This document shows positions 23,876 to 40,020 of a DNA stretch of 64,000 bases, in pieces. Position 1 is the stretch's first letter, and every line of letters starts with the position of its first letter. The notes beneath the pieces were generated by a model that worked only from the letters and a program-made list of their open reading frames with translations, was not told the DNA's origin and made no database searches. Where the stretch lies: the NCBI RefSeq assembly GCF_053078305.1, contig NZ_CP166879.1, one strand, 5' to 3'. Both the position numbers and the translations under genes were made by a program.

Positions 23876-23951
23876 GCCCGGATAGCTCAGTCGGTAGAGC
23901 AGGGGATTGAAAATCCCCGTGTCGGTGGTTCGATTCCGCCTCCGGGCACCA
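23876..23951 (+). tRNA. pheU: tRNA-Phe (anticodon GAA), pheU-type locus
   Basis: 76 nt: GCCCGGA acceptor stem pairing with TCCGGGC, D-arm AGCTCAGTCGGTAGAGC, anticodon loop ATTGAAAAT (GAA), T-loop TTCGATT, 3' CCA; followed directly by an integrase gene. Confidence 0.95.
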
Positions 23952-24146
23952 TATACCAGAACACGCTGGTTAAGGGATGAGATCCTTGACGGGCGGTTAA
24001 TACAGGATGCGGCATCAAAGGGTCTCCGTTTGTGTAAGTTGTGGTTACACTGATTGAGTTCGGTATCGTATCCTCAAACAGGGTCTCTTTTGCAGAGACG
24101 CCCTGTTCTCGTTAACACTGTATGCTTACATTGCTGATTCAGCCTG

Positions 24147-25184
24147 TCAAGATTTATTCCCCCCTTTGCAAATCTTGCTCACTGTGCGCTCATCTGTATA
24201 CAAACTCAGGGCATCTTCCAGTGTCTGCGCTGCAGACTCCATACAGACATCAACATACCCCATGGTCGTTGTAAGACTCCTGTGTCCCAGTATGGATTTG
24301 ACCAGATGTAAATTACGTTCAGGATATTTCATCAGTCTGGTTGCCAGCGTATGTCTGAAACGATGTGGTGAAACAGGAAAACCACATTCTCGCGAAAGTC
24401 GCCGGAAAAATGAACGTACGGTCTGATGCGCCCGAACGGGACAGTACTGATATCTGTCGGCAGAGATCGGCTCACTGAAACGACAGACGTCAAAAAGATA
24501 GTCATCATCACCTGCCCCGCACTGACGGGCCCGCTCCAGCAGTTTTTCCATCGATACCTTCAGGGGAGCCACCAGAGGAACGCCCCATTCCCTGTGAGTT
24601 TTACTTCCCTCCAGCTTAAGATCAATTATGCTTTCATCCGGACAGACATCCCTCACACGGATATGCTTCAGTTGATTAAAGCGCATTCCGGTATAACGCA
24701 GAACATCCAGAACTGTCAGCCAGTACCAGGCAGGGTATATAGCATTGCGTCGACGACTATTCACCATGTTCTGCTCTTCCGCTTCTGCAAACCTCTGCAC
24801 AACCAGGTAAACCCTGAGCATCTGATTGTCACTCAGTGTCTTTTTCTTTTTTTCAGTACTCGCAACTGATGCTTCCACCAACGGGTTTTCTGTCTGAGGC
24901 AGCAGTTTCATCTTGATCCCGAATCCCATAATTGCCCGCAAGTGGGCCACCTTGTTATTCCAGGTCACCTCCCTGCGCTTCTGCTCTTTCAGGACATAAC
25001 GCCGGTATCGCTGAACATCACGGACAGTCACCTCCCCCGGCAAAATATCACCGATAAATTCCCTGAATACCCTGACAACTTTGCAGTAGCTCCACTCTGT
25101 ATCCGGCCGAAGATTCTTTGAAAAAAAGTACTCTTCCAGCAGTTGTTCCCAGGTGATTTTTGTGACGGAATCGTCATTCTGCAT
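24147..25184 (-). CDS. Tyrosine-type site-specific integrase (island integrase)
   Basis: Start MQNDDSVTKITWEQLL (ATG 25184); catalytic signatures TGMRFNQL, HRFRHTLATRL and LGHRSLTTTMGYV; adjacent to the tRNA 3' end. Confidence 0.85.
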   Translation of the reverse strand: MQNDDSVTKITWEQLLEEYFFSKNLRPDTEWSYCKVVRVFREFIGDILPGEVTVRDVQRYRRYVLKEQKRREVTWNNKVAHLRAIMGFGIKMKLLPQTENPLVEASVASTEKKKKTLSDNQMLRVYLVVQRFAEAEEQNMVNSRRRNAIYPAWYWLTVLDVLRYTGMRFNQLKHIRVRDVCPDESIIDLKLEGSKTHREWGVPLVAPLKVSMEKLLERARQCGAGDDDYLFDVCRFSEPISADRYQYCPVRAHQTVRSFFRRLSRECGFPVSPHRFRHTLATRLMKYPERNLHLVKSILGHRSLTTTMGYVDVCMESAAQTLEDALSLYTDERTVSKICKGGNKS

Positions 25185-25251
25185 TATATATTCCCCTTGT
25201 TTACTGTGCTCCCGCACTCTCCGGTCAAATTCTGCACATCATCGCCTTTAC

Positions 25252-26739
25252 TCACCCGAAAACAATAAGCGGGCTGTCTCCGGGAACCGTAATATTCCCG
25301 TACAGAAACCTGCCCTTAACCAGATATCCCGAAACCATTTTGTAACGTCCGGAATGTTCTGCGTCACTATAAAGACGGGCCTGAAAAAAACGCTCTCCTG
25401 AACGTACCTTATGGATACCTGCCCGTTCAAAGAGCGACTGAACATAACGACGATCCTGCCCGGAACCACTCTCCTTCAGAAAACGATAAAAAATCCCCGG
25501 GGCACACAGAAAAACATATCCGGAAACAACATGAACATTTGAATCAACGCTGTTAACCGAAAGTGAACCCTCCCTCAGCCCCTCTTTTAACCATCTGATA
25601 AATTCACTCTCTACCCTGCTATCCTCTGTCAGGGAAAACTCTGCCGTTTTTTCCACTGTTTCCGGGATACGGTTTCCCTGATTTTCTGTTACACATCCGC
25701 TCTCTTCCGGTAACTCAATACCGCTTTCTTTATCCGGCGGCACGCCTGACGCTATCTGCCCTCCCTCATCCGACAAATCAGCAGCAGAAAACAGCGTAAG
25801 GAGCATTCCGGTATCAGCATCAGTTTCGTTCCCCTCATCCACCTCCTGTTCCGCTGTCCGGCCCTCATTTTCGGCATCCTCCACTGGCGACTGTACAACC
25901 GGCAACGGCTGAATGACGCTTTCTGCTGAAATTGCTGCTGACTGCAGCAGTACCGGAACAACCTCAGCCACCGGAACTTCGGCCACATCTCCTGCAGCGA
26001 GGGGACTCACGACTTCCTCCATAGCTTCCTGTAATACTGTACGTATCAGTGCCATTTCAGGATGCTGATGCCAGACTGCTCCGGCAAGATTCTGTAATGC
26101 CCCCGGGACAGTGGCAAGCCAGGCTCCCGCCTCTCCGGGCAGCAGTTGTCCCGCCATCAGGGCTGCCAGTTGCCGTCCCTCCGTTCCCTGGCAGGGCATC
26201 TTCCTGAACCGGAACCGGTATACGCCCTCAGGTACAGATATCCCCGGCTGCCAGCATCTGCCGTCGGCCTGTTCGCCTTCCAGTTCCGCCAGCAACGGCA
26301 GGTGATAAAACAGAGCCGACCAGAACACCACCATGTTCCACACACTCCCCTGCGCGGCCTGCTCTTCTGCTGTCGCTCCCGGTGGAAACATTCTGCCTCT
26401 GGCCAGCCGGACAGCATACGTCGTGAACTGCAGGGTCAGGTCACCAAAACCACCGGTGTAACCCCAGCGACCTTCTGCTGTGGCCGGCAGATTCTGACTG
26501 ACAGACAACAACTGATGCACAGGATCAAGACAAAGGCGCTGATACATATCCACCGGCATGGAACTGTTTTCCCATAACTGTTTCAGACACCTTTTCCTGA
26601 ACGGTGTGGATACCAGTACATCAGCCGGCAATGGTGTAAAATACCCCTCCGGCACCGTTTCCCCGGGAATATCCGTCCGGACATCAGAACATTCTGTCTT
26701 CACAGGAAATAACCTTTTCAGGCGTTCAAGCATGCCCAT
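25252..26739 (-). CDS. Hypothetical protein (495 aa) with an acidic low-complexity central region; operon partner of the helicase
   Basis: Long ORF whose start overlaps the stop of the upstream helicase gene by 14 nt; no motif I can assign. Confidence 0.5.
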   Translation of the reverse strand: MGMLERLKRLFPVKTECSDVRTDIPGETVPEGYFTPLPADVLVSTPFRKRCLKQLWENSSMPVDMYQRLCLDPVHQLLSVSQNLPATAEGRWGYTGGFGDLTLQFTTYAVRLARGRMFPPGATAEEQAAQGSVWNMVVFWSALFYHLPLLAELEGEQADGRCWQPGISVPEGVYRFRFRKMPCQGTEGRQLAALMAGQLLPGEAGAWLATVPGALQNLAGAVWHQHPEMALIRTVLQEAMEEVVSPLAAGDVAEVPVAEVVPVLLQSAAISAESVIQPLPVVQSPVEDAENEGRTAEQEVDEGNETDADTGMLLTLFSAADLSDEGGQIASGVPPDKESGIELPEESGCVTENQGNRIPETVEKTAEFSLTEDSRVESEFIRWLKEGLREGSLSVNSVDSNVHVVSGYVFLCAPGIFYRFLKESGSGQDRRYVQSLFERAGIHKVRSGERFFQARLYSDAEHSGRYKMVSGYLVKGRFLYGNITVPGDSPLIVFG

Positions 26740-28216
26740 TCTCCTGAACCCGACCTGATGTGTCGTACCCGGTCCCCCGCAGACCTTCAGTTTTCTGCTG
26801 TTCTTCTGCCAGTTGGTGCATCAGGTCATTCAGTACCAGCGTCCTGAGGGCCCGGGTGACAGCCACATATAACAGACAGGTTTCATCATGACGCTCGGCC
26901 TCCGTCATCAGCGGAACCGTGATATCCTGGAAATCCTCATCCAGCATTACAACCGGCCACTCCAGCCCCTTGCTCCGGTGTGCCGTTGACACCGTGATAT
27001 CTGCATCCTGCTCATTCGTTACCGTATACTGCCGGAGAAGTTCCAGTTTTTTCGGTAACGGAAAACACAACTCCAGAAGCCGAAGGGACTGATTCATCTC
27101 CACATCCTTCGTGGATTTTGCAATATATTTATATTCTTCAAAATTCCTGTAGTCCCGGCGCAGCCTGTCTGAATGCATCCGTTCCGGCATATCAACCTGG
27201 AACCAGTAGAGATCCTCAAGTTCCCCGGTCCTGTAACCTTCGATTCCCCCCACCCAGTAAACCTTTTGCCCTTTCATTGCCGCCATCAGCGCAGTACCAA
27301 TCACACCCGCGACAGTACGACTGAGTACCGTGTAATGCCCCTGCAGATGTTCACGCGCATGGCATTTCAGCAATACCTCATCATCACCACCACAACCTTT
27401 CACCTCTCGTGTTTCACCTTCACGCTGCAGAAGCAGATTTGCCATACGAGCCACCGCCGGACCAAAACGGAAACTCTGTGTCAGCCACAACCGGTCCGCA
27501 TTCTTCAGTGCAGGATGGGAAAGCGCATTATTCGCACCCCGAAAGCGGTAAATCTGTTGATAACAATCTCCAACAAGGACCACCCGACACTTCTGCCCCA
27601 GAACCAGAGCAGTGGTCACCGGATTCGCATCCTGCGCCTCATCAAACAGGATGGTGTCCCATCGGTGAGACAGGTCTGCACCGGACAACTGGAAGAGTTT
27701 CAGATAAGTATCGTGCGTCACCGGGAACGTCCCCCCGGGGTTGCTCATTTCGTTCCAGAGCAACTGCACCGCCCGAAGCGCATCTGCTGGCGGAACACCC
27801 CGCATCTCATCCTTATCCGGCAGGTGATGCAGGCCCGGTACCGCATCAGCAGAACAGATAAAATGATTCAGCCCCGTCCCTGCCACCCGTGCCAGAGCCC
27901 AGTATCGTGTATTCAGCTTTCTCGCCACATCAGTAATACGTAATCCCGGAACCAGCCGATGACGGTAGTGTCTTCCAACCCGGGCATACGCCAGCTGATG
28001 TGACGTTCTGCATTCCACGTTAAAGGGAAATTTACGCTCTGCCTCATCACGTATTGCCCGGTTATAGGCAAGATAGAGCATACGGCTGTCCGGACTGGCC
28101 CGGGCAAACTGCACCAGCGTACTCGTCTTCCCTGTGCCGGAAAACGCATTCACAACCAGTTGCTGCCCCTGCCAGTTAATAATGGCGTACTGTTCATCTG
28201 TGGGATTAAAAGACAT
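26726..28216 (-). CDS. UvrD/Rep-like superfamily 1 DNA helicase
   Basis: Start MSFNPTDEQYAIINWQ (ATG 28216); Walker A GTGKTS, motif II FDEAQD, C-terminal VAVTRA-type motif. Confidence 0.8.
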   Translation of the reverse strand: MSFNPTDEQYAIINWQGQQLVVNAFSGTGKTSTLVQFARASPDSRMLYLAYNRAIRDEAERKFPFNVECRTSHQLAYARVGRHYRHRLVPGLRITDVARKLNTRYWALARVAGTGLNHFICSADAVPGLHHLPDKDEMRGVPPADALRAVQLLWNEMSNPGGTFPVTHDTYLKLFQLSGADLSHRWDTILFDEAQDANPVTTALVLGQKCRVVLVGDCYQQIYRFRGANNALSHPALKNADRLWLTQSFRFGPAVARMANLLLQREGETREVKGCGGDDEVLLKCHAREHLQGHYTVLSRTVAGVIGTALMAAMKGQKVYWVGGIEGYRTGELEDLYWFQVDMPERMHSDRLRRDYRNFEEYKYIAKSTKDVEMNQSLRLLELCFPLPKKLELLRQYTVTNEQDADITVSTAHRSKGLEWPVVMLDEDFQDITVPLMTEAERHDETCLLYVAVTRALRTLVLNDLMHQLAEEQQKTEGLRGTGYDTSGRVQENGHA

Positions 28217-28447
28217 GTATTCTCTTCTCCGGAAAAACATTTCCGTAATCTGATGCATCAGGGGTATGCCCACCACAAATAACTCTGTACAGCAACAGAA
28301 AAATTTCCCTGGTCATATGATGAATTAATCATCGCCATCACACCGGATGCTTCTCATCCTGTCCTCAGAAAGACAGGTGGTCTCCTGTCTGCCGCGCTTA
28401 TCCAGGATACCGGGACCTGAAAGGTCATAATCTGGCAGGAAAAAATA

Positions 28448-30124
28448 ATGTCCGAAGTAAAAAAACACGTTTCTTATTCATTAACAGTTGCAGCTATGCT
28501 GTCAGCCGCCATCGTCTGTCAGACAGCACATGCTGATATCAACACACCGAACATCACCGGAGAAAAAAACAATACAACAACACGATTCTCCGGAAATATT
28601 TACGGCAGTGAAAATACTGTCACATCAGAGTCAAACAGTCTGGTTGTGGGTAACAGTAATTCCGTGGAGGGAGGGTATAACAACATTGTTATTGGTAATT
28701 CCTCCACGGTCAAAGCTTCCGGTTTGATCAGAAAAGTGGGCGAAGATATTGTGCTGGATGGTTACAGCGTCAGCCTCGGTAATGCCACCAGAATTAACGG
28801 TGATTCATCTGTTGCCATAGGTCTGACATCGTCCGTAACCGGGAACGACTCCGTGGCACTGGGCAGTCATTCCAGTGCTAACGGAAACAATATCGTATCC
28901 GTCGGCTCTGACACACTGAAACGCCGCATCACAAATCTGGCACAGGGGAAAGATGACCATGATGCGGTAAATCTGATGCAGATGACCAGTGCTGTTAACC
29001 GGGAAGCTGGAGAAAGAATAAAATCAACAAACAACCTGCAGAATCAGCTTAATACCCTCTCTGGTCAGGTCATAACTGAAACCAGGGCCCGAACAGAAGG
29101 TGATGCAGCAGCGCTGGCTGCAGCCAGAGCCCACAGCGATGAAAACGACAAAAGAACACTGGTCAGTGCGAATACCTATGCTGACCAGAAAGAAACCGCC
29201 ATCAATAACCGTACTGACGGATTACTGACGACCGAACGCCAGGCACGCACCGCAGGCGATACTGCAACTCTGGCTGCTGCCAGAACGCACAGCGATGAAA
29301 ACAACAAAAGAACACTGATCAGTGCGAATACCTATGCTGACCAGAAAGAAACCGCCATCAATAACCGTACTGACGGATTACTGGCTACAGAACGCCAGGC
29401 ACGCACCGCAGGCGATACTGCAACTCTGGCTGCTGCCAGAACGCACAGCGATGAAAACAACAAAAGAACACTGGTCAGTGCGAATACTTATGCTGACCAG
29501 AAAGAAACCGACATCAATAACCGTACTGACGGATTACTGGCTACAGAACGCCAGGCACGCACCGCAGGCGATACTGCAACTCTGGCTGCTGCCAGAACGC
29601 ACAGCGATGAAAACAACAAAAGAACACTGATCAGTGCGAATACCTATGCTGACCAGAAAGAAACCGCCATCAATAACCGTACTGACGGATTACTGACGAC
29701 CGAACGCCAGGCACGCATCGCAGGTGATGCCGCAACTCTGGCAACAGCAGCGGCATACAGTGACGCCGGGGATTCACTGACACTGAAACAGGCAACAGCC
29801 TACAGCGATATCAGTACCCGCCGGGCACTGTCAGAGGCCAATCGTTATACCGACAACAAATTCAGAAACCTGAGCAATAAAATTGAACGGGCAGAAAAAA
29901 GACTTAATGCAGGCATCGCCGGAGTGACAGCAATATCCTCCATCCCCTATGTGGCTGAAAATTCTTTTTCATACGGGATCGGCGTGGGTAACTATCAGAA
30001 CGCTAATGCTGTGGCCGCAGGCATTCAGTATAAAACATCACGTAATACCAATATACGCCTCAACATCTCCTGGGACTCATCTCATAACACCGCGATTGGT
30101 GCAGGGGTTGCCGGCGGCTGGTAA
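28448..30124 (+). CDS. Trimeric autotransporter adhesin (YadA-like; Eib/Saa-like size class)
   Basis: Signal peptide (AAMLSAAIVCQTAHA); head repeats (NSVEGGYNNIVIGNSS, SVAIGLTSSVTGNDSVALG); coiled-coil stalk with tandem repeats; C-terminal YadA anchor ending NISWDSSHNTAIGAGVAGGW. Confidence 0.8.
   Translation: MSEVKKHVSYSLTVAAMLSAAIVCQTAHADINTPNITGEKNNTTTRFSGNIYGSENTVTSESNSLVVGNSNSVEGGYNNIVIGNSSTVKASGLIRKVGEDIVLDGYSVSLGNATRINGDSSVAIGLTSSVTGNDSVALGSHSSANGNNIVSVGSDTLKRRITNLAQGKDDHDAVNLMQMTSAVNREAGERIKSTNNLQNQLNTLSGQVITETRARTEGDAAALAAARAHSDENDKRTLVSANTYADQKETAINNRTDGLLTTERQARTAGDTATLAAARTHSDENNKRTLISANTYADQKETAINNRTDGLLATERQARTAGDTATLAAARTHSDENNKRTLVSANTYADQKETDINNRTDGLLATERQARTAGDTATLAAARTHSDENNKRTLISANTYADQKETAINNRTDGLLTTERQARIAGDAATLATAAAYSDAGDSLTLKQATAYSDISTRRALSEANRYTDNKFRNLSNKIERAEKRLNAGIAGVTAISSIPYVAENSFSYGIGVGNYQNANAVAAGIQYKTSRNTNIRLNISWDSSHNTAIGAGVAGGW
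29132..29755 (+). repeat. Four tandem copies of a 156-bp (52-codon) in-frame repeat inside the adhesin stalk
   Basis: Unit starts at 29132, 29288, 29444 and 29600 (CACAGCGATGAAAAC...), near-identical; encodes HSDENNKRTL(V/I)SANTYADQKETAINNRTDGLL(T/A)TERQARTAGDTATLAAART. Confidence 0.9.
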
Positions 30125-30363
30125 ATAATCTTGCGTACATACGGCATTATGGTATTCCATAATCACATTAATTCAGTACGCAACACAGCCCCATCCGGAA
30201 CAGACCACTGGACTGAGCGGGATAATCAAGGAAAAAGGGCGCGCAGTGAGGTCAGCCTTCACAACAATCCGGCGGCAGATTTCCTGCCGCCGTGTTGCCC
30301 GTTAACATTTAACTTCGTGGGCTGACGTTGCCACAAGCACCGTATTTCCCTGATTTATTCTGT

Positions 30364-30852
30364 TTATTTTATTGTGGATAATGATGCCAATGGCATGAAT
30401 AAAGTTCTTCCGGACTCCGGGAACGCCATAAAGCCATAATGTTTGTAAAATGCGACTGCCGTGTCATCTTTTGCATCAACAATAAGCGCATATGCTGCAA
30501 TTTCAGATGTGTATGCACGATATAGCGCATCAGCTAAAAGTGCTCCCCCAAGCCCCGTTCCTTTTGATGACAGACTTACTGCCAGTCGTCCCATACGAAT
30601 AGCCGGAATAGTGGGATATCGCGGAAGCTTTTTTCTCAAATGCTCAGGTAAGTCAGTTAATAATATACTGGCCGCTGATAACGTATAGTATCCGATGATA
30701 TGATGATCGTTATCTACAGCGACAAAACAGGCCGCGATGCGTCGTCGAATATCCTGTGTGACATGCTCTTTTATGTAACGGTCCAGAGCATCAGAGCCAC
30801 ATAAAAATGAGGTTCTGTCATATGTGCTGTTAAATGGTGTCAGTTGAAACAT
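30364..30852 (-). CDS. GNAT-family acetyltransferase toxin (TacT/KacT/ItaT-like type II toxin)
   Basis: 162 aa with GNAT acetyl-CoA motif GTGLGGALLADAL; immediately downstream of, and co-oriented with, a DUF1778-type antitoxin gene (5-bp gap). Confidence 0.75.
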   Translation of the reverse strand: MFQLTPFNSTYDRTSFLCGSDALDRYIKEHVTQDIRRRIAACFVAVDNDHHIIGYYTLSAASILLTDLPEHLRKKLPRYPTIPAIRMGRLAVSLSSKGTGLGGALLADALYRAYTSEIAAYALIVDAKDDTAVAFYKHYGFMAFPESGRTLFMPLASLSTIK

Positions 30853-30857
30853 TATAT

Positions 30858-31139
30858 TTATTTTGTGTACAGCATATTATTACGGCGTTTAAAGGCCCGT
30901 TTAAGCGCATCATTCGGCTCTGTTGGTGACAGTAATGCCTGAGCAAAAATTTCCTGATCTGTCCGGGACAGTCGGATTATATCGGTTTGTTCGATAGCGC
31001 GTTGGGCCGCATCCTGAACGGCAGCAATGATAAAATCGGTCATAGTGCGCCCCTGGATTTCTGCAGCGCGCTTCAGCATGGCATGTAGTTCTGTGCTGAT
31101 CCTTGCTTCCAGTCGGGCAGTTTGTGTTGCAGATGGCAT
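30858..31139 (-). CDS. DUF1778-type ribbon-helix-helix antitoxin (TacA/KacA-like)
   Basis: 93 aa, RLEARISTELHAMLKRAAEIQGRTMTDFIIAAV (RHH fold), upstream partner of the GNAT gene. Confidence 0.75.
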   Translation of the reverse strand: MPSATQTARLEARISTELHAMLKRAAEIQGRTMTDFIIAAVQDAAQRAIEQTDIIRLSRTDQEIFAQALLSPTEPNDALKRAFKRRNNMLYTK

Positions 31140-31157
31140 GATTTGTACCTCCTGAAT

Positions 31158-31184
31158 ACACTGTACGGCAAATTGCCGTATTGT
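31158..31184. promoter_or_regulatory. Palindromic candidate operator upstream of the toxin-antitoxin operon
   Basis: TACGGCAA-a-TTGCCGTA perfect 8-bp arms (31164-31180) inside a longer imperfect dyad, about 25 bp upstream of the antitoxin start. Confidence 0.45.
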
Positions 31185-31556
31185 GCAAATTACACTCTGA
31201 CACCGGGACGGCAGACAGACATTCTGCCTGAAAAGAAAAATCAGATTCAGACAAAACTATCCGGGGGATGTTAACGCCACGATCTTTGACCATTGCATAC
31301 AGATAAAAGCTCAGATTATTTACCAGCAGTGACATCCGGAGTACACCGGGATTTTATCTGTGAGTGAACATACCCGGGCAAAAAAATCCCCCGAATTCAG
31401 GGGGGTGTCAAAGAGGAATTATGTATATTGGTTATTATAATGAGCACGCCTCCGGTATTCCGCGACGAATGTTCACGTGGTGGCATGAACGGCCCGGAAA
31501 CGTGCTCTTCTGATTTTTAACGTAAATTTACACTAAAGGCAACTCTGATACTGCCT

Positions 31557-32132
31557 TCACCGGATATAGGAGAAGGCCGTCGTGACCCGCTTCACTCCGC
31601 TCACCCTACTGGCAACATCTGCTGCCGCTCGCCCTTCCTGCTCTGTAACCAGGCCCAGTAAAAAGACTTCGCTGTTTTCTGTCACCACCTTGACACTGGA
31701 TGATTTGACACGGGCACTTGTGAGTAACTGAGAACGAATTTTTGTCGTAAGCCAGGCATCACCTGCCATTATGACCGGACTGACGGGTGTCCCCTGCCGG
31801 ATTTCATTATAGACCTCCTGAACACCATCGACACCGAGTGCTATCTGACGGGCACGGGCAGATAATTCACGGCCCGGAGACTGACCGATCAGCAGCACGC
31901 GTCCCTGATATGCAATCTCACTGATACGTGCTTCTTTTCTGATTTGTTCATCTTTTGAAAGTGCACTGCTGACCCTCAGCTCCAGCACTTCATCATCCAC
32001 CTGCGCTCCGACACTGCGTGGGTCGGTTGCTGCCTTTGTCCCGACAGCAGCTGTACCCACCACAGCGGCAGCCACGCACCCCTGTAACAATAAGGCTGAA
32101 GTAAGGACAACAGCAGAATATAATAAACGCAT
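31557..32132 (-). CDS. BON-domain outer-membrane lipoprotein, DolP/YraP paralog
   Basis: 191 aa; lipobox LLLQGC then VAAAVVGTAAVGTKAATDPRSVG and two BON-like segments ending VSGVKRVTTAFSYIR; closely resembles core DolP but sits in the island. Confidence 0.8.
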   Translation of the reverse strand: MRLLYSAVVLTSALLLQGCVAAAVVGTAAVGTKAATDPRSVGAQVDDEVLELRVSSALSKDEQIRKEARISEIAYQGRVLLIGQSPGRELSARARQIALGVDGVQEVYNEIRQGTPVSPVIMAGDAWLTTKIRSQLLTSARVKSSSVKVVTENSEVFLLGLVTEQEGRAAADVASRVSGVKRVTTAFSYIR

Positions 32133-34893: not shown

Positions 34894-35118
34894 ATGACAC
34901 GCAACGCAACGCAACGCAACGCAACGCAACGCAACGCAACGCAACGCAACGCAACGCAACGCAACGCAACGCAACGCAACGCAACGCAACGCAACGCAAC
35001 GCAACAATATGCTCGCCTGAACTCTCTCCGTCAAGTACCTCTACCTCCGTGCTTTCTGGAGGTACTGTATGAATATACGCAACAATCATCTACCGGGAAC
35101 AGAAACTCTTTTTTCTGA
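34894..35118 (+). CDS. Candidate leader ORF containing the pentanucleotide tract and overlapping the mod start
   Basis: ATG 34894 preceded by GAGG (34885-34888); reads MT(RNATQ)x7 through the repeat and ends at 35118, 50 nt beyond the mod ATG; coding status unproven. Confidence 0.35.
   Translation: MTRNATQRNATQRNATQRNATQRNATQRNATQRNATQQYARLNSLRQVPLPPCFLEVLYEYTQQSSTGNRNSFF
34899..35005 (+). repeat. Perfect pentanucleotide simple-sequence repeat (GCAAC)21
   Basis: 21 uninterrupted GCAAC units at 34901-35005 (tract with partial unit starts 34899), ending 63 bp upstream of the mod ATG. Confidence 0.97.
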
Positions 35119-37105
35119 AACTGAAACTGCGAACAGTAAACAACTTGCTGTTTTGAAAACTAACTTTCCACAGTGTTTCGATAAAAACGGAGCTTTCATT
35201 CAGGAAAAGCTGCTTGAGATCATCAGAGCATCAAATGTTGAAATCTCTAAAGAGTCATACTGCTTAAACTGGCTTGGCAAATCCTATGCTCGCCTGCTGG
35301 CTAACCTACCACCAACGACATTGCTGTCAGAAGATAAAGACCATAACCGACGTGAAGAGAACAAGAACAGTCAAAATCTGTTAATCAAAGGGGATAACCT
35401 TGAGGTATTAAAGCATATGGTTAATGCTTATTCTGAAAAGGTTAAAATGATTTATATCGATCCGCCATATAACACGGGTTCTGATGGGTTCGCCTATAAT
35501 GATGATCGCAAATTTACACCAGAACAGCTTTCTGATCTGGCGGGTATCGATCTTGATGAGGCTAAACGTATACTTGAATTTACCACGAATGGTTCAAGCA
35601 GCCATAGCGCATGGTTAACGTTCATTTATCCTCGTTTATATATTGCTCGTGAGCTTCTACGTGAAGATGGTGTGATATTTATTTCGATTGACGAAAATGA
35701 ATTAAATCAACTTAAAACTATTTGTGATGAAATTTTTGGCGAAGCAAATTTCATAGAAAATATTGTATGGAATAAACGTATCCCTAAAAATGATAAGGGT
35801 ATTGGTAATATCCATGAGTACATCCTTGCTTATGCGAAGAATAACGAAATAAGTAAAGAATTTTTAATGCGGAAAGATGGTATTGATGATGTATATCAGT
35901 TTATTGAAAAGTTAAAAAAGGAAAAGGTGCCATTAGATAAAGCAGAGCAGCAACTCAAAAAATTCTACAGCTCCAACGGATATGATCGTGGAATTACTCT
36001 TTACAACGGTTTGAACGAGGATTATAGGCCATGGGGTAAAATTAATATGAGTTGGCCTAATGCAGATTCATTTGGACCCACGTATGAAGTATTGCACCCT
36101 TTGACTAATAACCCTGTCAAAATCCCAGACAGAGGCTGGCGTTGGAAAGAAGGCACTTTTAATCATATTGCAAAAAGAATAGATGGAAAGTATGCAGATA
36201 TCAAAAAACTACATGATGGTAGCGTTATTTGTGGTGGAATTTGGTTTGCCCGTACAGAAAAAACCCAACCCAGTTCGGTTAAATTTTTAGATGAAGTTGA
36301 AGAGTTTTTACTAAGATCAATTATTTCAACTAAAAGTGATGGTGGTGTTGAGGTTGAAAATCTTTTTGGTGGGAAAGGATATTTCTCCTACCCGAAGCCA
36401 ACAAGTTTAATAAAAACACTATTTGGTTCAGTAAGAACCGAAGATAAAGACATTTATCTTGACTTTTTTGCTGGCTCTGGAACTACAGCTCATGGTATTC
36501 TGGAGTTAAATATTGAAGACGGCAGGAAAAGAAACTTCATCTGTGTTCAATTAGATGAAGAAACAGATAAAAAGAAACAAGCCTATAAAGAAGGGTATAA
36601 ATCCATCTTCAATATAACAAAAGACAGAATTATTAAGGCAGGAAAAAAGCTGAAAAAAGATAATCCTAATTATAATGGAGATTTGGGATTTAAAATATTT
36701 GAAACAGTTCATGATTTTCGAGCGAAAGATGAGTCTGAACTTACGCTTTCTAATCTTAGTTTCTTTGACGATGCTGTATTGACACCAGAGCAGTATGACA
36801 CTCTATTGACGACATGGTGCGTGTATGATGGCAGCTTGCTAACAACACCAATTGAAGATATTGACCTTAATGGCTACAAAGCACACTTGTGCGATGGTCG
36901 GCTATATCTAATTGCGCCTAATTTCACAAGTGAGGCTTTGAAAGCTTTACTTCAAAAGCTGGATGCAGACAAAGACTTTGCCCCTAACAAAGTTGTATTT
37001 TATGGCAGCAACTTCGAAAGTGCGAAACAGATGGAACTCAATGAAGCACTAAAAAGTTATGCTAATAAAAAATCTATTGATTTAGATTTGGTGGTAAGGA
37101 ACTAA
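35069..37105 (+). CDS. mod: Type III restriction-modification methyltransferase Mod (N6-adenine)
   Basis: 678 aa; GGAGG Shine-Dalgarno at 35058-35062; motif IV IYIDPPYNTG, motif I FFAGSGTTAHG; followed 2 bp later by res. Confidence 0.9.
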   Translation: MNIRNNHLPGTETLFSETETANSKQLAVLKTNFPQCFDKNGAFIQEKLLEIIRASNVEISKESYCLNWLGKSYARLLANLPPTTLLSEDKDHNRREENKNSQNLLIKGDNLEVLKHMVNAYSEKVKMIYIDPPYNTGSDGFAYNDDRKFTPEQLSDLAGIDLDEAKRILEFTTNGSSSHSAWLTFIYPRLYIARELLREDGVIFISIDENELNQLKTICDEIFGEANFIENIVWNKRIPKNDKGIGNIHEYILAYAKNNEISKEFLMRKDGIDDVYQFIEKLKKEKVPLDKAEQQLKKFYSSNGYDRGITLYNGLNEDYRPWGKINMSWPNADSFGPTYEVLHPLTNNPVKIPDRGWRWKEGTFNHIAKRIDGKYADIKKLHDGSVICGGIWFARTEKTQPSSVKFLDEVEEFLLRSIISTKSDGGVEVENLFGGKGYFSYPKPTSLIKTLFGSVRTEDKDIYLDFFAGSGTTAHGILELNIEDGRKRNFICVQLDEETDKKKQAYKEGYKSIFNITKDRIIKAGKKLKKDNPNYNGDLGFKIFETVHDFRAKDESELTLSNLSFFDDAVLTPEQYDTLLTTWCVYDGSLLTTPIEDIDLNGYKAHLCDGRLYLIAPNFTSEALKALLQKLDADKDFAPNKVVFYGSNFESAKQMELNEALKSYANKKSIDLDLVVRN

Positions 37106-37107
37106 TC

Positions 37108-40020
37108 ATGTCTAAAGGGTTCACATTCGAAAAAAATTTACCTCATCAAAAGGCTGGCGTTGATTCGGTAATGAATGTCTTTGTATCCGCCATACCTCAT
37201 CAGACGGATCATGTTGCAATTCGCCTGTTAGCTAATCCAGAACTGAATCTATCTGAACAACAATACTACAACAACATAAAAAATGTTCAGGAGTTCAATG
37301 GTATTGAGCACTCAAAAGATAATTACGATGCTAAAAGCAACGTAATTGATGTTTCTATGGAGACAGGTACAGGTAAAACTTATACTTACACCAAAACAAT
37401 TTTTGACCTGAACAAATCATTTGGTATTAACAAATTTATCATCATTGTTCCTACCCTATCGATCAAAGCCGGAACCGTTAACTTTTTAAAAAGCGATGCT
37501 ATAAAAGAACACTTTCGAGATGATTACGAGCGTGAACTAAAGACTTACGTTGTTGAAAGTCAGAAAAGTTCGGGTAAAAATACAAAATCGTATATGCCTC
37601 AAGCTATCCATGATTTTGTTGAAGCAAGTAATTTCAATAAGAAATATATACACATTCTTGTGATCAACTCAGGGATGATTAACTCTAAGTCTTTAACTGA
37701 CACTTATGATGTTGGCTTGCTTGATAATCAGTTTGATACCCCATTTTCTGCACTTAGTGCGATAAAACCATTCATTATCATTGATGAGCCTCATAAATTT
37801 CCTACTGGTAAAAAGACATGGGAACATATTCAAAAATTTAATGCCCAATATATCATCCGCTATGGCGCAACCTTTAGTGAAGGCTATAAGAACTTAGTTT
37901 ATCGTCTTACAGCCGTAGATGCCTTCAATGAAGATCTTGTTAAAGGTATTGATGCATACATTGAGGATATAGTTGGTGATGGTAATGCCAACCTCAAGTT
38001 GGTCAAATCTGACGGAAAAGAAGCTACATTTGAACTGAACGAAAATAATAATAAAAAAATTTTTAAGTTAGCCAAAGGTGAATCACTATCTAAGACGCAT
38101 AGTGCGATCCATGATTTAACTCTTGATGCTTTAAATAAGAATACAGCAGTGTTGAGTAATGGTATTGAGCTAAAAATTGGTAGTTCGATAAACCCCTATT
38201 CTTACGATCAGACACTTGCTGATAACATGATGCGTAAAGCTGTCAAAGAACACTTTAAGTTAGAAAAAGAGTATCTGACACAAAGGCCACGCATAAAACC
38301 TCTTACTCTTTTCTTCATTGATGACATTGAAGGCTATCGTGATGGTAATGATATTGCAGGAAGCCTGAAAACTAAGTTCGAAGAATACGTTTTGGCAGAA
38401 GCAAATGAACTGTTAAAAACAGAGAAAGATGAGTTTTACAGAAACTACCTTGAAAAAACTGTTAAGGATATATCTTCTGTTCATGGTGGTTATTTTTCAA
38501 AAGATAATAGTGATAAAGATGATAAAATTGAGCAGGAAATCAACGAAATCCTTCATGATAAAGAGCTTCTATTGTCTTTAGAAAATCCTCGCCGTTTCAT
38601 TTTCTCTAAATGGACGTTGCGTGAGGGATGGGATAACCCAAATGTCTTTCAGATTTGTAAGCTCCGTTCGAGCGGTAGCACCACATCTAAACTTCAGGAG
38701 GTAGGGCGTGGTTTACGTCTTCCAGTGAATGAATACATGTGCCGTGTGAAAAACCGCGATTTTACTCTCAACTATTATGTTGATTTTACGGAAAAAGATT
38801 TTGTTGATTCTCTTGTAAAAGAGGTTAATGATAGTTCTTTCAAAGAAACTGTTCCAGGTAAGTTTACTCAAGAACTTAAGGATAAAATCTTATCTCAGTA
38901 TCCTGAGCTTTCATCCAGAACACTCATGAATGAGATCTTTGATGCTGAAATTATTGATGATAATGAAAACTTCAAAGATTCCGATGCCTATAGCCGTTTA
39001 AAAGCAAAATATCCGGCTGCATTCCCTACCGGGGTGAAACCAACAAAAATAAAAAAAGCCACGGATGGAAAAAAGCGTACTAAAATGCGTATTGGTAAGT
39101 TCAGTGAGTTGAAAGAACTATGGGATTTGATCAATCAAAAAGTAGTAATTGAGTATAAAATAAATAGTGAAAATGAATTCTTATCCATTTTCAAATCATT
39201 CATGATTGAAGAAACAGATAGATTTACTAAATCAGGTGTTCATACTCGCATTGATAGAATTTATATTCATAATGATACGGCGATGTCGAAAAGTATCGTC
39301 AGTGACGATGATAACTTTGCTAAACTAAACACAATGAGCTATCGGGAATTTCTTGATAACTTATCACAAACTATTTTTGCTAAACACGATACCTTACATA
39401 AGGTTTTTTGTGATATAAAAGACACTATCAATATCACCGACTACCTGAACATTCAGACAATCAGAAAGATTAAATCTGGGTTTAGCAAGTATTTGTTGAA
39501 CAATTCATTTAACAAATTCAGCCTTGGATATAATGTAATTTCAGGCTCAATTCATCCTACAAAATTCACTAATGCAGACGGTAATCACCTGCATGAGGTA
39601 TTATCAGGTGATCTTGGAGTATTACAGGATAATACAAAAGCCCCCCTAGACTCTTATCTTTTTGAAGAAGTTTTTTATGATTCAGAGCTTGAAAGACTCA
39701 ATATAACAGACGGAGAGATCCACTCTGTTGCTGTTTTTACAAAGATACCGAAAAACTCAATTAAAATTCCAGTGGCAGGTGGATACACATATTCTCCTGA
39801 CTTTGCTTATGTTGTAAAAACAACAAAGGGTGACTACCTTAACTTTATTATTGAAACAAAAAATGTCGAAGGTAAAGAAAGTTTACGTAAAGAAGAACTG
39901 GATAAAATAAAGCATGCACAAAAACTTTTCGAACAGGTAAGTAAATCTGTAAAAGTAACTTTTATAACTCAATTCTCAGGTGACAGAATCCATGATCTGA
40001 TAAAAAATGTGATTCAGTAA
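37108..40020 (+). CDS. res: Type III restriction enzyme Res subunit (SF2 helicase-like ATPase/nuclease)
   Basis: 970 aa; Walker A TGTGKTYT, DEAH-like IIIDEPHKF; tightly coupled to mod. Confidence 0.9.
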   Translation: MSKGFTFEKNLPHQKAGVDSVMNVFVSAIPHQTDHVAIRLLANPELNLSEQQYYNNIKNVQEFNGIEHSKDNYDAKSNVIDVSMETGTGKTYTYTKTIFDLNKSFGINKFIIIVPTLSIKAGTVNFLKSDAIKEHFRDDYERELKTYVVESQKSSGKNTKSYMPQAIHDFVEASNFNKKYIHILVINSGMINSKSLTDTYDVGLLDNQFDTPFSALSAIKPFIIIDEPHKFPTGKKTWEHIQKFNAQYIIRYGATFSEGYKNLVYRLTAVDAFNEDLVKGIDAYIEDIVGDGNANLKLVKSDGKEATFELNENNNKKIFKLAKGESLSKTHSAIHDLTLDALNKNTAVLSNGIELKIGSSINPYSYDQTLADNMMRKAVKEHFKLEKEYLTQRPRIKPLTLFFIDDIEGYRDGNDIAGSLKTKFEEYVLAEANELLKTEKDEFYRNYLEKTVKDISSVHGGYFSKDNSDKDDKIEQEINEILHDKELLLSLENPRRFIFSKWTLREGWDNPNVFQICKLRSSGSTTSKLQEVGRGLRLPVNEYMCRVKNRDFTLNYYVDFTEKDFVDSLVKEVNDSSFKETVPGKFTQELKDKILSQYPELSSRTLMNEIFDAEIIDDNENFKDSDAYSRLKAKYPAAFPTGVKPTKIKKATDGKKRTKMRIGKFSELKELWDLINQKVVIEYKINSENEFLSIFKSFMIEETDRFTKSGVHTRIDRIYIHNDTAMSKSIVSDDDNFAKLNTMSYREFLDNLSQTIFAKHDTLHKVFCDIKDTINITDYLNIQTIRKIKSGFSKYLLNNSFNKFSLGYNVISGSIHPTKFTNADGNHLHEVLSGDLGVLQDNTKAPLDSYLFEEVFYDSELERLNITDGEIHSVAVFTKIPKNSIKIPVAGGYTYSPDFAYVVKTTKGDYLNFIIETKNVEGKESLRKEELDKIKHAQKLFEQVSKSVKVTFITQFSGDRIHDLIKNVIQ

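Follow-up and report, generated by a model that had tools for sequence, protein, structure and literature searches.

A predicted GNAT/DUF1778 toxin-antitoxin operon with an operator-like palindrome, carried as an accessory cassette in a pheU island of Escherichia coli

We sought to determine what kind of gene pair lies in a small stretch of a 64,000-nt window (the whole piece of DNA analysed; RefSeq assembly GCF_053078305.1, contig NZ_CP166879.1), how it may be regulated, and whom it could benefit. The initial annotation had described a ribbon-helix-helix (RHH) antitoxin gene followed 5 bp later by a GNAT acetyltransferase gene, and the open reading frames bear out both order and spacing; they also place the two genes on the minus strand, which had been left unsaid, with the antitoxin first and the toxin second (Table 1). 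No obvious Shine-Dalgarno sequence precedes the toxin ATG, and translation of the toxin is therefore likely to be coupled to that of the antitoxin. A homologous antitoxin CDS is found directly upstream of the toxin in 80 of 80 relatives, although a contig end cuts one or two of these. With a probability of about 0.85, we regard the locus as a functional type II GNAT/DUF1778 toxin-antitoxin (TA) operon, forming an accessory 0.9-kb cassette in an island with ICE-like genes at pheU.

Table 1. Features of the cassette and its surroundings (positions in the window)
Feature	Position	Strand	Basis
Mobile cassette limits, promoter/operator and two genes, ~0.9 kb	30345..31268		Plasmid homology and sister island
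Toxin gene, 162-aa GNAT acetyltransferase, predicted aminoacyl-tRNA N-acetyltransferase	30364..30852	-	ORF; Pfam Acetyltransf_10/7/1
Gap from antitoxin stop to toxin ATG, exactly 5 bp	30853..30857	-	Direct sequence reading
Antitoxin gene, 93 aa, DUF1778/TacA family	30858..31139	-	ORF; Pfam TacA1 (PF08681), E 4e-27
Shine-Dalgarno AGGAGG, 8 nt before antitoxin ATG	31148..31153	-	Sequence; cagGagGa conserved in 77 aligned promoters
Putative -10 TACAGT (family consensus TAtnaT)	31160..31165	-	Conserved columns +7..+12 of promoter alignment
Operator-like perfect palindrome TACGGCAA-A-TTGCCGTA, two TACGGCA half-sites	31164..31180		Centre 31172
Putative -35 TTGCAC (family consensus TTGAtt)	31183..31188	-	Conserved TTGa, columns -16..-13; 17 nt from -10
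Terminator-like hairpin and T-run, 3′ of upstream dolP-like gene	31388..31403	-	Outside cassette

Every sequence feature of the GNAT/DUF1778 type II class that could be checked was found in the pair. The Pfam TacA1 model matches the antitoxin and GNAT models match the toxin with E values of 1e-8 to 1e-5. In phmmer comparisons with the PDB, the toxin aligns over residues 8-159 with AtaT (6ajn, E 7e-21), KacT (5zgn, 2e-20) and TacT (6g96, 4e-20), the values over all solved AtaT, KacT and TacT structures ranging from 7e-21 to 4e-17, and the antitoxin matches KacA (5zgn_A, 2e-9) and TacA (7zg5_C, 8e-9), with a range of 2e-9 to 5e-5 over KacA, TacA and AtaR. The assignment made at the outset thus stands for the class (TacAT/KacAT/AtaRT), on Pfam and PDB matches, catalytic residues and operator conservation; within the class the pair is not ItaRT-like, ItaT being 21% identical to the window toxin and belonging to another clade. 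We also rejected a module of the Pseudomonas aeruginosa PacTA type, a GNAT-Xre pair of reversed layout, in which the toxin gene comes first and that of an Xre-type antitoxin follows (PMC9561280), whereas here an RHH antitoxin lies upstream. A search of positions 29900-31700 against Rfam at E<=1 yielded nothing near any gathering score, and hence no known RNA element. RefSeq labels the antitoxin as TacA family and the toxin as “GNAT family N-acetyltransferase”.

In a 22-sequence alignment, Tyr136 of the toxin falls on TacT Y140 and KacT Y145, and Ala91 on TacT A93; both columns are kept in essentially all characterised toxins, and the acetyl-CoA motif K97-G-T-G-L-G102 (G-x-G-x-G) is present. 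Homologous enzymes acetylate the alpha-amino group of aminoacyl-tRNA (PMC9177977, PMC7595197), and by homology the same activity is predicted here. The toxin nevertheless deviates from the consensus of its own subfamily (at least 93%) at three positions, D93S and F96S adjoining the acetyl-CoA motif and H139Y adjoining the catalytic Tyr, and because these departures lie so close to both elements its activity or specificity could be altered. The three substitutions are common to the window toxin and a plasmid copy, and must therefore predate the chromosome/plasmid split and have been retained since. The Asp that matches D93 is also missing in the active toxins ItaT (Ala) and AcaT (Thr). In KacT2, a single natural substitution gives a non-toxic variant, loss of D78 abolishing toxicity (PMC9431474); as an account of D93S this was rejected, since D78 maps to a different, subfamily-specific position, P80 of the window toxin rather than residue 93, and is uninformative for this copy.

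Among characterised toxins, TacT_Bcn of Burkholderia cenocepacia is the closest, with 62% identity over a 122-aa core and ~56% overall, figures that are approximate, the TacT_Bcn protein having been rebuilt from OCR-damaged supplementary DNA. In a neighbor-joining (NJ) tree with 200 bootstraps, the window toxin, seven database relatives and TacT_Bcn are grouped with a support of 86, and support is weak (18-26%) at the nodes that join this group to the remaining clade D toxins. Clade B (ItaT, TacT_Sce and SonT) forms its own group without the window toxin (bootstrap 96; 21-24% identity), and an ItaRT-like identity was rejected. TacT_Bcn acetylates almost only Gly-tRNA(Gly) in vivo, and clade D members tested so far are all Gly-specific (PMC9177977). 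Since the window toxin groups with TacT_Bcn, Gly-tRNA(Gly) is its predicted target. In the PDB comparison, clade A and clade D toxins score almost alike, with AtaT giving the best single score (78 bits).

The palindrome said to lie just upstream of the antitoxin is indeed there, its centre 33 nt before the antitoxin ATG and its proximal end 24 nt upstream of it, and it extends imperfectly over positions 31159-31185 (13-nt arms, 85% complementary). Perfect 8+8 palindromes with a spacer of 0-3 number 10 in the window, as compared with 4.5 +/- 1.6 in Markov simulations, and about 0.007 would be expected by chance in any given 100-nt stretch; we take this one as a real operator-like element because of its conservation in sequence and position, and not because of its rarity in the window. 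Among 78 homologous loci from beta-, gamma- and delta-proteobacteria, CGGY-N5-RCCG is present in 77 and the strict form TACGGC-N5-GCCGTA in 70, with the motif centred 32-38 nt before the ATG and most often at 33, as in the window. In the 77-locus alignment, from which the promoter assignment was also taken, the palindrome carries 1.69 bits per column versus 0.08 in the unconserved upstream flank, and it takes up the 17 nt between the two elements of a conserved TTGA/TAtnaT promoter, its last two bases being overlapped by the -10 hexamer. Since no more than 3 of the 6 bases of the -35 agree with the consensus, neither this hexamer nor the -10 of the cassette promoter was called by a stricter consensus promoter scan. 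The 94%-identical plasmid copy has an identical palindrome, against 8 differences over the 118 positions of the distal promoter region. Taken together with its placement in the antitoxin promoter, we consider it operator-like, and further members of the subfamily could be searched for with the consensus TTGA-N4-GTACGGCAAnTTGCCGTAT-aT, which is sharp enough for that purpose.

The antitoxin has the N-terminal RHH strand T7-ARLEARIS-15, which is at least 95% conserved among 75 relatives, and a toxin-binding region at the C-terminus. Its residues R9, E11 and R13 align with R8, D10 and R12, through which KacA contacts operator DNA (PMC6698736), so that the R/D(E)/R contact set is common to both proteins, and the antitoxin probably binds the palindrome as a DNA-reading protein. 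The KacA operator AAATGTACGGTTATTAACCGTACATGA (5ZGN) and the window palindrome share the layout TACGG-N7-CCGTA over a promoter and differ at the inner half-site bases, GGTTA in KacA versus GGCAA in the window. A further difference lies in KacA Arg77, which is essential for toxin neutralisation (PMC6698736) and aligns with Ala78 of the window antitoxin.

The mechanism that we infer comprises DNA binding, complex stoichiometry, toxicity, neutralisation, glycine specificity and stabilisation of the carrier. A single sigma-70 promoter (TTGCAC, 17 nt, TACAGT) would transcribe the antitoxin and then the toxin, and the antitoxin would dimerise via its N-terminal RHH domain, one dimer sitting on each TACGGCA half-site. 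Because the dimer-bound palindrome would fill the promoter spacer and overlap the -10, the antitoxin, or a toxin2:antitoxin4 complex by analogy with KacAT and AtaRT, would be expected to repress its own operon. The toxin would be kept inactive by the antitoxin C-terminus; when the labile antitoxin is not replenished, free toxin would transfer an acetyl group from acetyl-CoA to the alpha-amino group of charged tRNA, with Gly-tRNA(Gly) as the most probable substrate, resulting in arrest of translation elongation and growth. Given its residence on mobile elements, the cassette would most likely benefit itself and its carrier, by post-segregational growth arrest.

Inserted in the E. coli chromosome at pheU (tRNA-Phe), the island has ICE-like genes (integrase, TraI_2 and UvrD), and the cassette forms a separate accessory unit within it. 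The IncK2/Z plasmid pDETEC45, whose toxin is WP_001443703, and further plasmids of E. coli are homologous to the window over positions 30345-31257; in E. coli JNEC-KY202, a sister island aligns as far as 30352 and again from 31269, the cassette being missing between. The full cassette is present on nine E. coli plasmids, one of them IncK2/Z and eight untyped, and on the one plasmid inspected it adjoins a Hok/pnd killer locus. More broadly, the subfamily was found on 136 plasmids, 79 of them conjugative, and about 240 plasmids carry a 206-bp remnant of a decayed cassette. Island and E. coli plasmid copies have proteins that are 94-98% identical, and the toxin gene is intact in every full-length chromosomal and plasmid copy among the matches listed. 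Between the chromosomal and the 94%-identical plasmid copy, dN/dS is 0.12 for the toxin and 0.05 for the antitoxin, and both genes are therefore under purifying selection. A phage collection held only ~30%-identical KacT-like genes, in phage-plasmids and in other phage or phage-labelled records. Genes of a type III restriction-modification system are located 4 kb from the cassette, and the annotation of sister islands includes a KwaB-like protein as well as SAVED and ThiF proteins. The cassette is thus located where an addiction module would be expected, in an island with ICE-like genes and on plasmids, yet there are sister islands without it; that it stabilises its island is plausible, but the same island exists without the cassette in other strains.

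Could the pair be something else, or act otherwise than proposed? The idea that the GNAT gene encodes an ordinary acetyltransferase for housekeeping or resistance, such as a RimI-like enzyme, and is unrelated to the small upstream ORF and the palindrome, may be set aside with near certainty: it could appeal to the generic RefSeq name and to weak NCBIfam matches (rimI and others), but these are all sub-threshold (rimI with 24 bits, far under its cut-off of 86; YlcI/YnfO with 29 versus 30), and it is contradicted by the full-length matches to solved GNAT toxins, by the DUF1778 CDS upstream at all 80 loci and by the conserved operator. It is also improbable that the main role of the cassette is anti-phage defence by abortive infection, as part of a defence-rich island, and not addiction. 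Abortion of phage infection is known for many type II TA systems, and the restriction-modification genes 4 kb away, with the KwaB-like, SAVED and ThiF proteins of the sister islands, would fit such a role. However, PADLOC 2.0 returned no family at E <= 1e-3 for toxin or antitoxin, phage records hold distant relatives only, the cassette travels alongside plasmid maintenance genes, and, to our knowledge, GNAT/DUF1778 pairs have not been reported to act against phage.

Two other possibilities concern the toxin itself. Retention of the catalytic Tyr and Ala and of G-x-G-x-G, the intact gene in all full-length copies among the matches listed, its dN/dS of 0.12, and substitutions old enough to be shared with the plasmid copy and kept all argue against a toxin attenuated or inactive in the E. 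coli lineage, with the locus surviving as an autoregulated antitoxin that could, for example, be an anti-addiction copy countering the 94%-identical plasmid toxin; we find this quite unlikely, in spite of the three departures from near-invariant subfamily residues, the precedent of KacT2 and the many decayed plasmid remnants. As for a functional pair whose toxin is broad or otherwise specific, either AtaT/KacT-like (Gly and hydrophobic amino acids) or ItaT-like (Ile/Leu/Val), we consider it unlikely. The top PDB score is to AtaT, clade A and D scores hardly differ, the operator is nearer to that of clade A KacA than to the clade D-type repeats before GmvA/TacA-like genes, and the lineage-specific S93, S96 and Y139 lie close to the active site. 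On the other hand, the window toxin groups with Gly-specific TacT_Bcn, is only 28-30% identical to AtaT/KacT and 21% to ItaT without grouping with either, and the tested members of clade D have all proved Gly-specific (PMC9177977). Glycine specificity in a functional pair hence remains our preferred prediction.

Comparison with characterised systems shows that TacT_Bcn and its DUF1778 partner from B. cenocepacia J2315 (Bikmetov et al. 2022, PMC9177977) belong to the same subfamily and have the same gene order, but TacT_Bcn, a clade D toxin, differs in host and replicon, and at position 93 it has the subfamily residue (D/F/H at the three positions occupied by S93/S96/Y139 in the window toxin). 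KacAT from Klebsiella pneumoniae (crystal 5ZGN, PMC6698736) and AtaRT from E. coli O157:H7 share the architecture, with RHH upstream and a catalytic Tyr, and are the model for the T2A4 complex and conditional cooperativity, although KacT and AtaT are clade A toxins of broad specificity (Gly and hydrophobic), with ~28-30% identity to the window toxin. The founding members, TacAT1-3 of Salmonella Typhimurium, are chromosomal and tied to macrophage persisters; their toxins acetylate Gly-tRNA, with Pth acting in detoxification, and are 28-34% identical to the window toxin, whose Y136 and A91 correspond to TacT Y140 and A93. TacA-like plasmid loci have GTATAGC-type repeats upstream, as opposed to TACGGC in the window subfamily. 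GmvAT from Shigella pINV likewise combines GNAT and DUF1778 genes on a mobile replicon; its toxin is Gly-specific (PMC9177977) and 29% identical to that of the window, and a role in plasmid maintenance has been demonstrated for the pair (PMC6519299, PMC8923223). The two gmv genes overlap, in contrast to the 5-bp gap in the window, and the repeats upstream of them also differ. By analogy, GmvAT is the best precedent for a cassette that would stabilise its carrier. ItaRT from E. coli is of the same broad class, but as a clade B system with Ile/Leu/Val preference it is a poor model for the window copy.

The pair is an ordinary system, one more member of the known GNAT/DUF1778 family, and specialists would not be surprised by it, as family, mechanism and regulation are already well described; the gain is mostly in annotation, as a TacAT-type pair with a predicted Gly-tRNA(Gly) target and a defined putative promoter and operator. 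Since the operator (TACGGCA-N3-TGCCGTA) and the DNA-reading strand are near-invariant and the copies 94-98% identical, it is conceivable, if rather doubtful, that the chromosomal copy is an anti-addiction locus directed against plasmid cassettes, or vice versa, the subfamily sharing one regulatory code. If so, neutralisation of the plasmid toxin and repression of the plasmid operon by the island antitoxin would release the host from post-segregational killing by those plasmids, and the plasmid copy could have the same effect on the island; co-resident cassettes of the subfamily would cross-talk, and DUF1778 clades with other half-sites (GTATAGC) would be insulated. The near-identical copies on the island and on conjugative resistance-type plasmids provide a simple test bed for cross-neutralisation. 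Upstream of the cassette, the terminator-like hairpin behind the dolP-like gene would insulate the cassette promoter from read-through.

The initial annotation had described an RHH antitoxin gene followed 5 bp later by a gene for a GNAT acetyltransferase, with a palindrome just upstream of the antitoxin, and this was borne out: both ORFs lie adjacent on the minus strand and the quoted palindrome was located, its end 24 nt from the antitoxin ATG, the sole omission being that the operon runs from right to left. Assignment to the GNAT/DUF1778 toxin-antitoxin class likewise agrees with the Pfam and solved-structure matches, the catalytic residues and the conserved operator. The antitoxin matches Pfam TacA1/DUF1778 (E 4e-27) and the structures of KacA (2e-9), TacA (8e-9) and AtaR (3e-6), and the toxin matches three GNAT models in Pfam and, over nearly its full length, the structures of AtaT (E 7e-21), KacT (2e-20) and TacT (4e-20); identical proteins in other E. 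coli are named in RefSeq as “type II toxin-antitoxin system TacA family antitoxin” and “GNAT family N-acetyltransferase”. In an alignment of the toxin with the set of 14 toxins studied experimentally in Bikmetov et al. 2022 (PMC9177977), its Tyr136 falls into the invariant catalytic-tyrosine column (TacT Y140, KacT Y145) and its Ala91 lines up with TacT A93; the acetyl-CoA motif G-x-G-x-G is present. Antitoxin residues R9, E11 and R13 correspond, in a gap-free alignment, to KacA R8, D10 and R12; in the KacAT-DNA crystal these KacA residues read the bases of the operator, and binding is lost when they are mutated (PMC6698736). Judged by its sequence, the system appears to be intact, under selection and autoregulated, and it belongs to a family already characterised in depth, with TacT_Bcn as the nearest studied relative. 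The present analysis adds a prediction of Gly-tRNA(Gly) as the target, delimits the cassette, and defines a promoter/operator that the comparison between loci supports strongly.

Positions of the toxin-antitoxin genes, their control region, neighbouring island genes and comparison loci (window positions unless a locus is named)
Feature	Position	Strand	Remark
tRNA-Phe (pheU)	23876-23951		beside dsbD/dicD
Tyrosine integrase	24147-25217		
TraI_2-type putative relaxase	25252-26739		
UvrD helicase	26726-28276		
YadA-like trimeric autotransporter adhesin	28448-30124	+	repeats 29114-29742
Toxin ORF, 162 aa	30364-30852	-	start 5 bases past antitoxin stop codon
Antitoxin ORF, 93 aa	30858-31139	-	direct sequence reading
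Shine-Dalgarno AGGAGG	31148-31153		between palindrome and antitoxin ATG
Palindrome TACGGCAA-A-TTGCCGTA	31164-31180		imperfect 13-nt arms at 31159-31185 by repeat finder
dolP/yraP-like BON-domain lipoprotein, extra (second) copy	31557-32132	-	directly upstream of TA promoter
Type III restriction-modification system, complete	35069-40020	+	PADLOC
GTATAGC/GCTATAC-type repeats	L086 298-407		GmvA, Shigella pINV
GTATAGC/GCTATAC-type repeats	L087 328-437, L088 328-437		TacA-like gene and another pair, Klebsiella plasmids
206-bp stub	L003 4001-4206		equivalent to window 31052-31257

An 8+8 palindrome taken alone is weak evidence, because the window contains ten of them (spacer 0-3) where chance alone would give 4.5; it is the comparative result that counts. 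Scanning a single genome per species yielded 80 loci from beta-, gamma- and delta-proteobacteria with toxins 58-67% identical, and each of the 80 encodes an antitoxin homologue (54-77% identity) immediately upstream of its toxin. Upstream sequence of 200 nt or more was available for 78 loci, window included; CGGY-N5-RCCG is found in 77 of these and the strict form TACGGC-N5-GCCGTA in 70, with the motif centre 32-38 nt before the ATG (mode 33, as in the window). In the alignment of 77 loci anchored on the motif, near-fixed columns extend beyond the anchoring pattern itself (T-8 74/77, A-7 74/77, A-2 73/77, T+7 74/77, A+8 76/77), and information content is as low as 0.08 bits per column over the 29 positions upstream of these. 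The 381 kb of homologous loci contain the strict motif 71 times, the 64-kb window once. A promoter is visible in the same alignment (TTGa at -16 to -13 and TAtnaT at +7 to +12), and its spacer is 17 nt, so that the palindrome occupies the whole spacer and reaches into the -10; the putative window promoter reads TTGCAC, 17 nt, TACAGT. In the antitoxins of 75 of these loci, conservation of the beta-strand T-ARLEARIS is 95% or higher, so the DNA reader and its site are co-conserved. The KacAT crystal DNA, AAATGTACGGTTATTAACCGTACATGA, shares the TACGG-N7-CCGTA geometry of the window palindrome, which may thus be predicted to be a conserved operator from homology to a structurally defined complex, and not from symmetry alone.

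By analogy with KacAT and AtaRT (PMC6698736), two antitoxin dimers would sit on the two half-sites, bridged into a toxin2:antitoxin4 complex that would block RNA polymerase at the -10 and spacer, and repression might be relieved once toxin exceeds antitoxin (conditional cooperativity). Translational coupling of toxin to antitoxin is suggested, because the toxin gene has no recognisable Shine-Dalgarno and starts 5 nt past the antitoxin stop. Once free, the toxin would stall elongation through acetylation of charged tRNA, with Pth as the presumed detoxifying enzyme; binding, repression and acetylation are all expected of the window copy from its studied relatives.

Upstream of GmvA and two other plasmid DUF1778 genes there are GTATAGC/GCTATAC-type repeats, not TACGGC, and the KacA half-site is GTACGGT. 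The half-site appears to be clade-specific among DUF1778 systems; since it differs between clades, co-resident systems would be insulated, and since it is essentially fixed within the subfamily, cross-talk between copies, e.g. on island and plasmid, would be allowed. The window subfamily, GmvT and TacT toxins are all placed in clade D, although their upstream half-sites differ.

The TacAT/KacAT/ItaRT class named in the initial annotation stands except in its reference to ItaT, which, together with AtaT, KacT, TacT1-3, AtaT2 and GmvT, lies in a bracket of only 21-34% identity to the window toxin, and belongs to a separate tree group. The subfamily comprises >7,800 database proteins at E<=1e-10, typical members being 61-68% identical, from Burkholderiales, Pseudomonas, Halothiobacillus and others, and includes one studied member, TacT_Bcn of Burkholderia cenocepacia J2315, which acts almost exclusively on Gly-tRNA(Gly). 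Its gene was taken from Supplementary Table 4 of PMC9177977; the window toxin is 62% identical to this DNA, in OCR-damaged text, over a 122-aa core by tblastn, and 56% identical overall to its hand-repaired translation. As stored, the table repeats GmvT, with an identical Protein ID, as the protein beside TacT_Bcn; only the TacT_Bcn DNA is the Burkholderia gene, and reuse needs its translation. A neighbour-joining tree places the window protein and its database relatives in one group with TacT_Bcn (86% bootstrap), apart from the AtaT/KacT pair (100%) and ItaT/TacT_Sce/SonT (96%). From this grouping, we predict Gly-tRNA(Gly) as the target, with a probability of about 0.65, while a tRNA specificity other than Gly seems improbable.

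At ten positions the window toxin departs from 93% or more of the 118 relatives compared within its subfamily, and three of these departures, D93S, F96S and H139Y (codons within 30436-30576), adjoin the acetyl-CoA motif and the catalytic Tyr; the relatives have Asp, Phe and His in 93-100% of cases, and Ser93, Ser96 and Tyr139 characterise the E. coli lineage, being common to the window toxin and the plasmid copy. Such changes might point to an inactivated toxin, but this is unlikely in view of purifying selection: between chromosomal and plasmid copies (dS ~0.2), dN/dS is 0.12 for the toxin and 0.05 for the antitoxin, and the last 55 nt of the promoter, operator included, are identical, the 8 differences all falling in the distal 63 nt, so that both genes and the operator have been maintained by selection. 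The Asp at position 93 is also missing in the active toxins ItaT and AcaT, and the three substitutions could tune activity. An anti-phage role, to which the genomic neighbourhood might point, is very doubtful, as neither protein has a PADLOC match and no close phage-borne relatives were found in the phage collection. A housekeeping acetyltransferase reading was excluded.

The full cassette is present in only 17/5,426 complete E. coli genomes, 10 times on the chromosome (98.8-99.6% identity) and 7 times on plasmids (94%). Homology to the plasmid copies covers exactly 30345-31257, and the sister pheU island of strain JNEC-KY202 lacks the TA genes, its match to the window ending at 30352 and restarting at 31269 (L085 16356 / 21406); this makes the cassette a self-contained accessory module of ~0.9 kb, moved between plasmids and island. 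Neither flanking direct repeats nor a transposase were seen on comparison of the empty and occupied sites (30345-30353, 31257-31269). On the one plasmid locus inspected, pDETEC45 (IncK2/Z), the cassette is flanked by a Hok/pnd killer gene and excA. About 240 further plasmids, mostly predicted conjugative, retain only a 206-bp stub (promoter/operator and the first 29 antitoxin codons); the single example examined (L003, an IncFIA/IncFIB plasmid carrying IncI1-type transfer genes) has it between the same two genes, with operator and -35 already mutated (CCGTT, TTAGCAC), and the cassette seems to have been repeatedly lost from this backbone. The subfamily was found on 136 plasmids, 79 of them conjugative. 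According to PMC6519299 and PMC8923223, GmvAT on Shigella pINV is a GNAT/DUF1778 pair able to maintain a replicon; the mobile-element distribution and this precedent fit an addiction role without proving one, and the same island exists without the cassette, which is thus not needed for island persistence.

On this E. coli chromosome, dcuA-cutA-dsbD-dicD is followed by pheU and the island start, where integrase, putative relaxase and UvrD form an end module (23876-28276) as in an integrative conjugative element. Related islands continue with ArdC, TraG-N and “integrating conjugative element” proteins, one strain having subAB toxin and sialic-acid genes, and the pheU island is highly mosaic from strain to strain. 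The adhesin repeats are four tandem 156-nt (52-aa) units with 95% identity, and the gene is either 1521 or 1677 nt long depending on the strain, so repeat number varies. The type III system, 4 kb from the cassette, has an EcoP15I-like Mod of 678 aa (MTase_III E 1e-233) and a Res of 970 aa (REase_III E 0). In other strains, a truncated dolP-like copy adjoins the cassette (L001 21258-21527) and a full copy lies 3 kb further; the arrangement in the window looks as if recombination between two such copies had deleted the intervening DNA.
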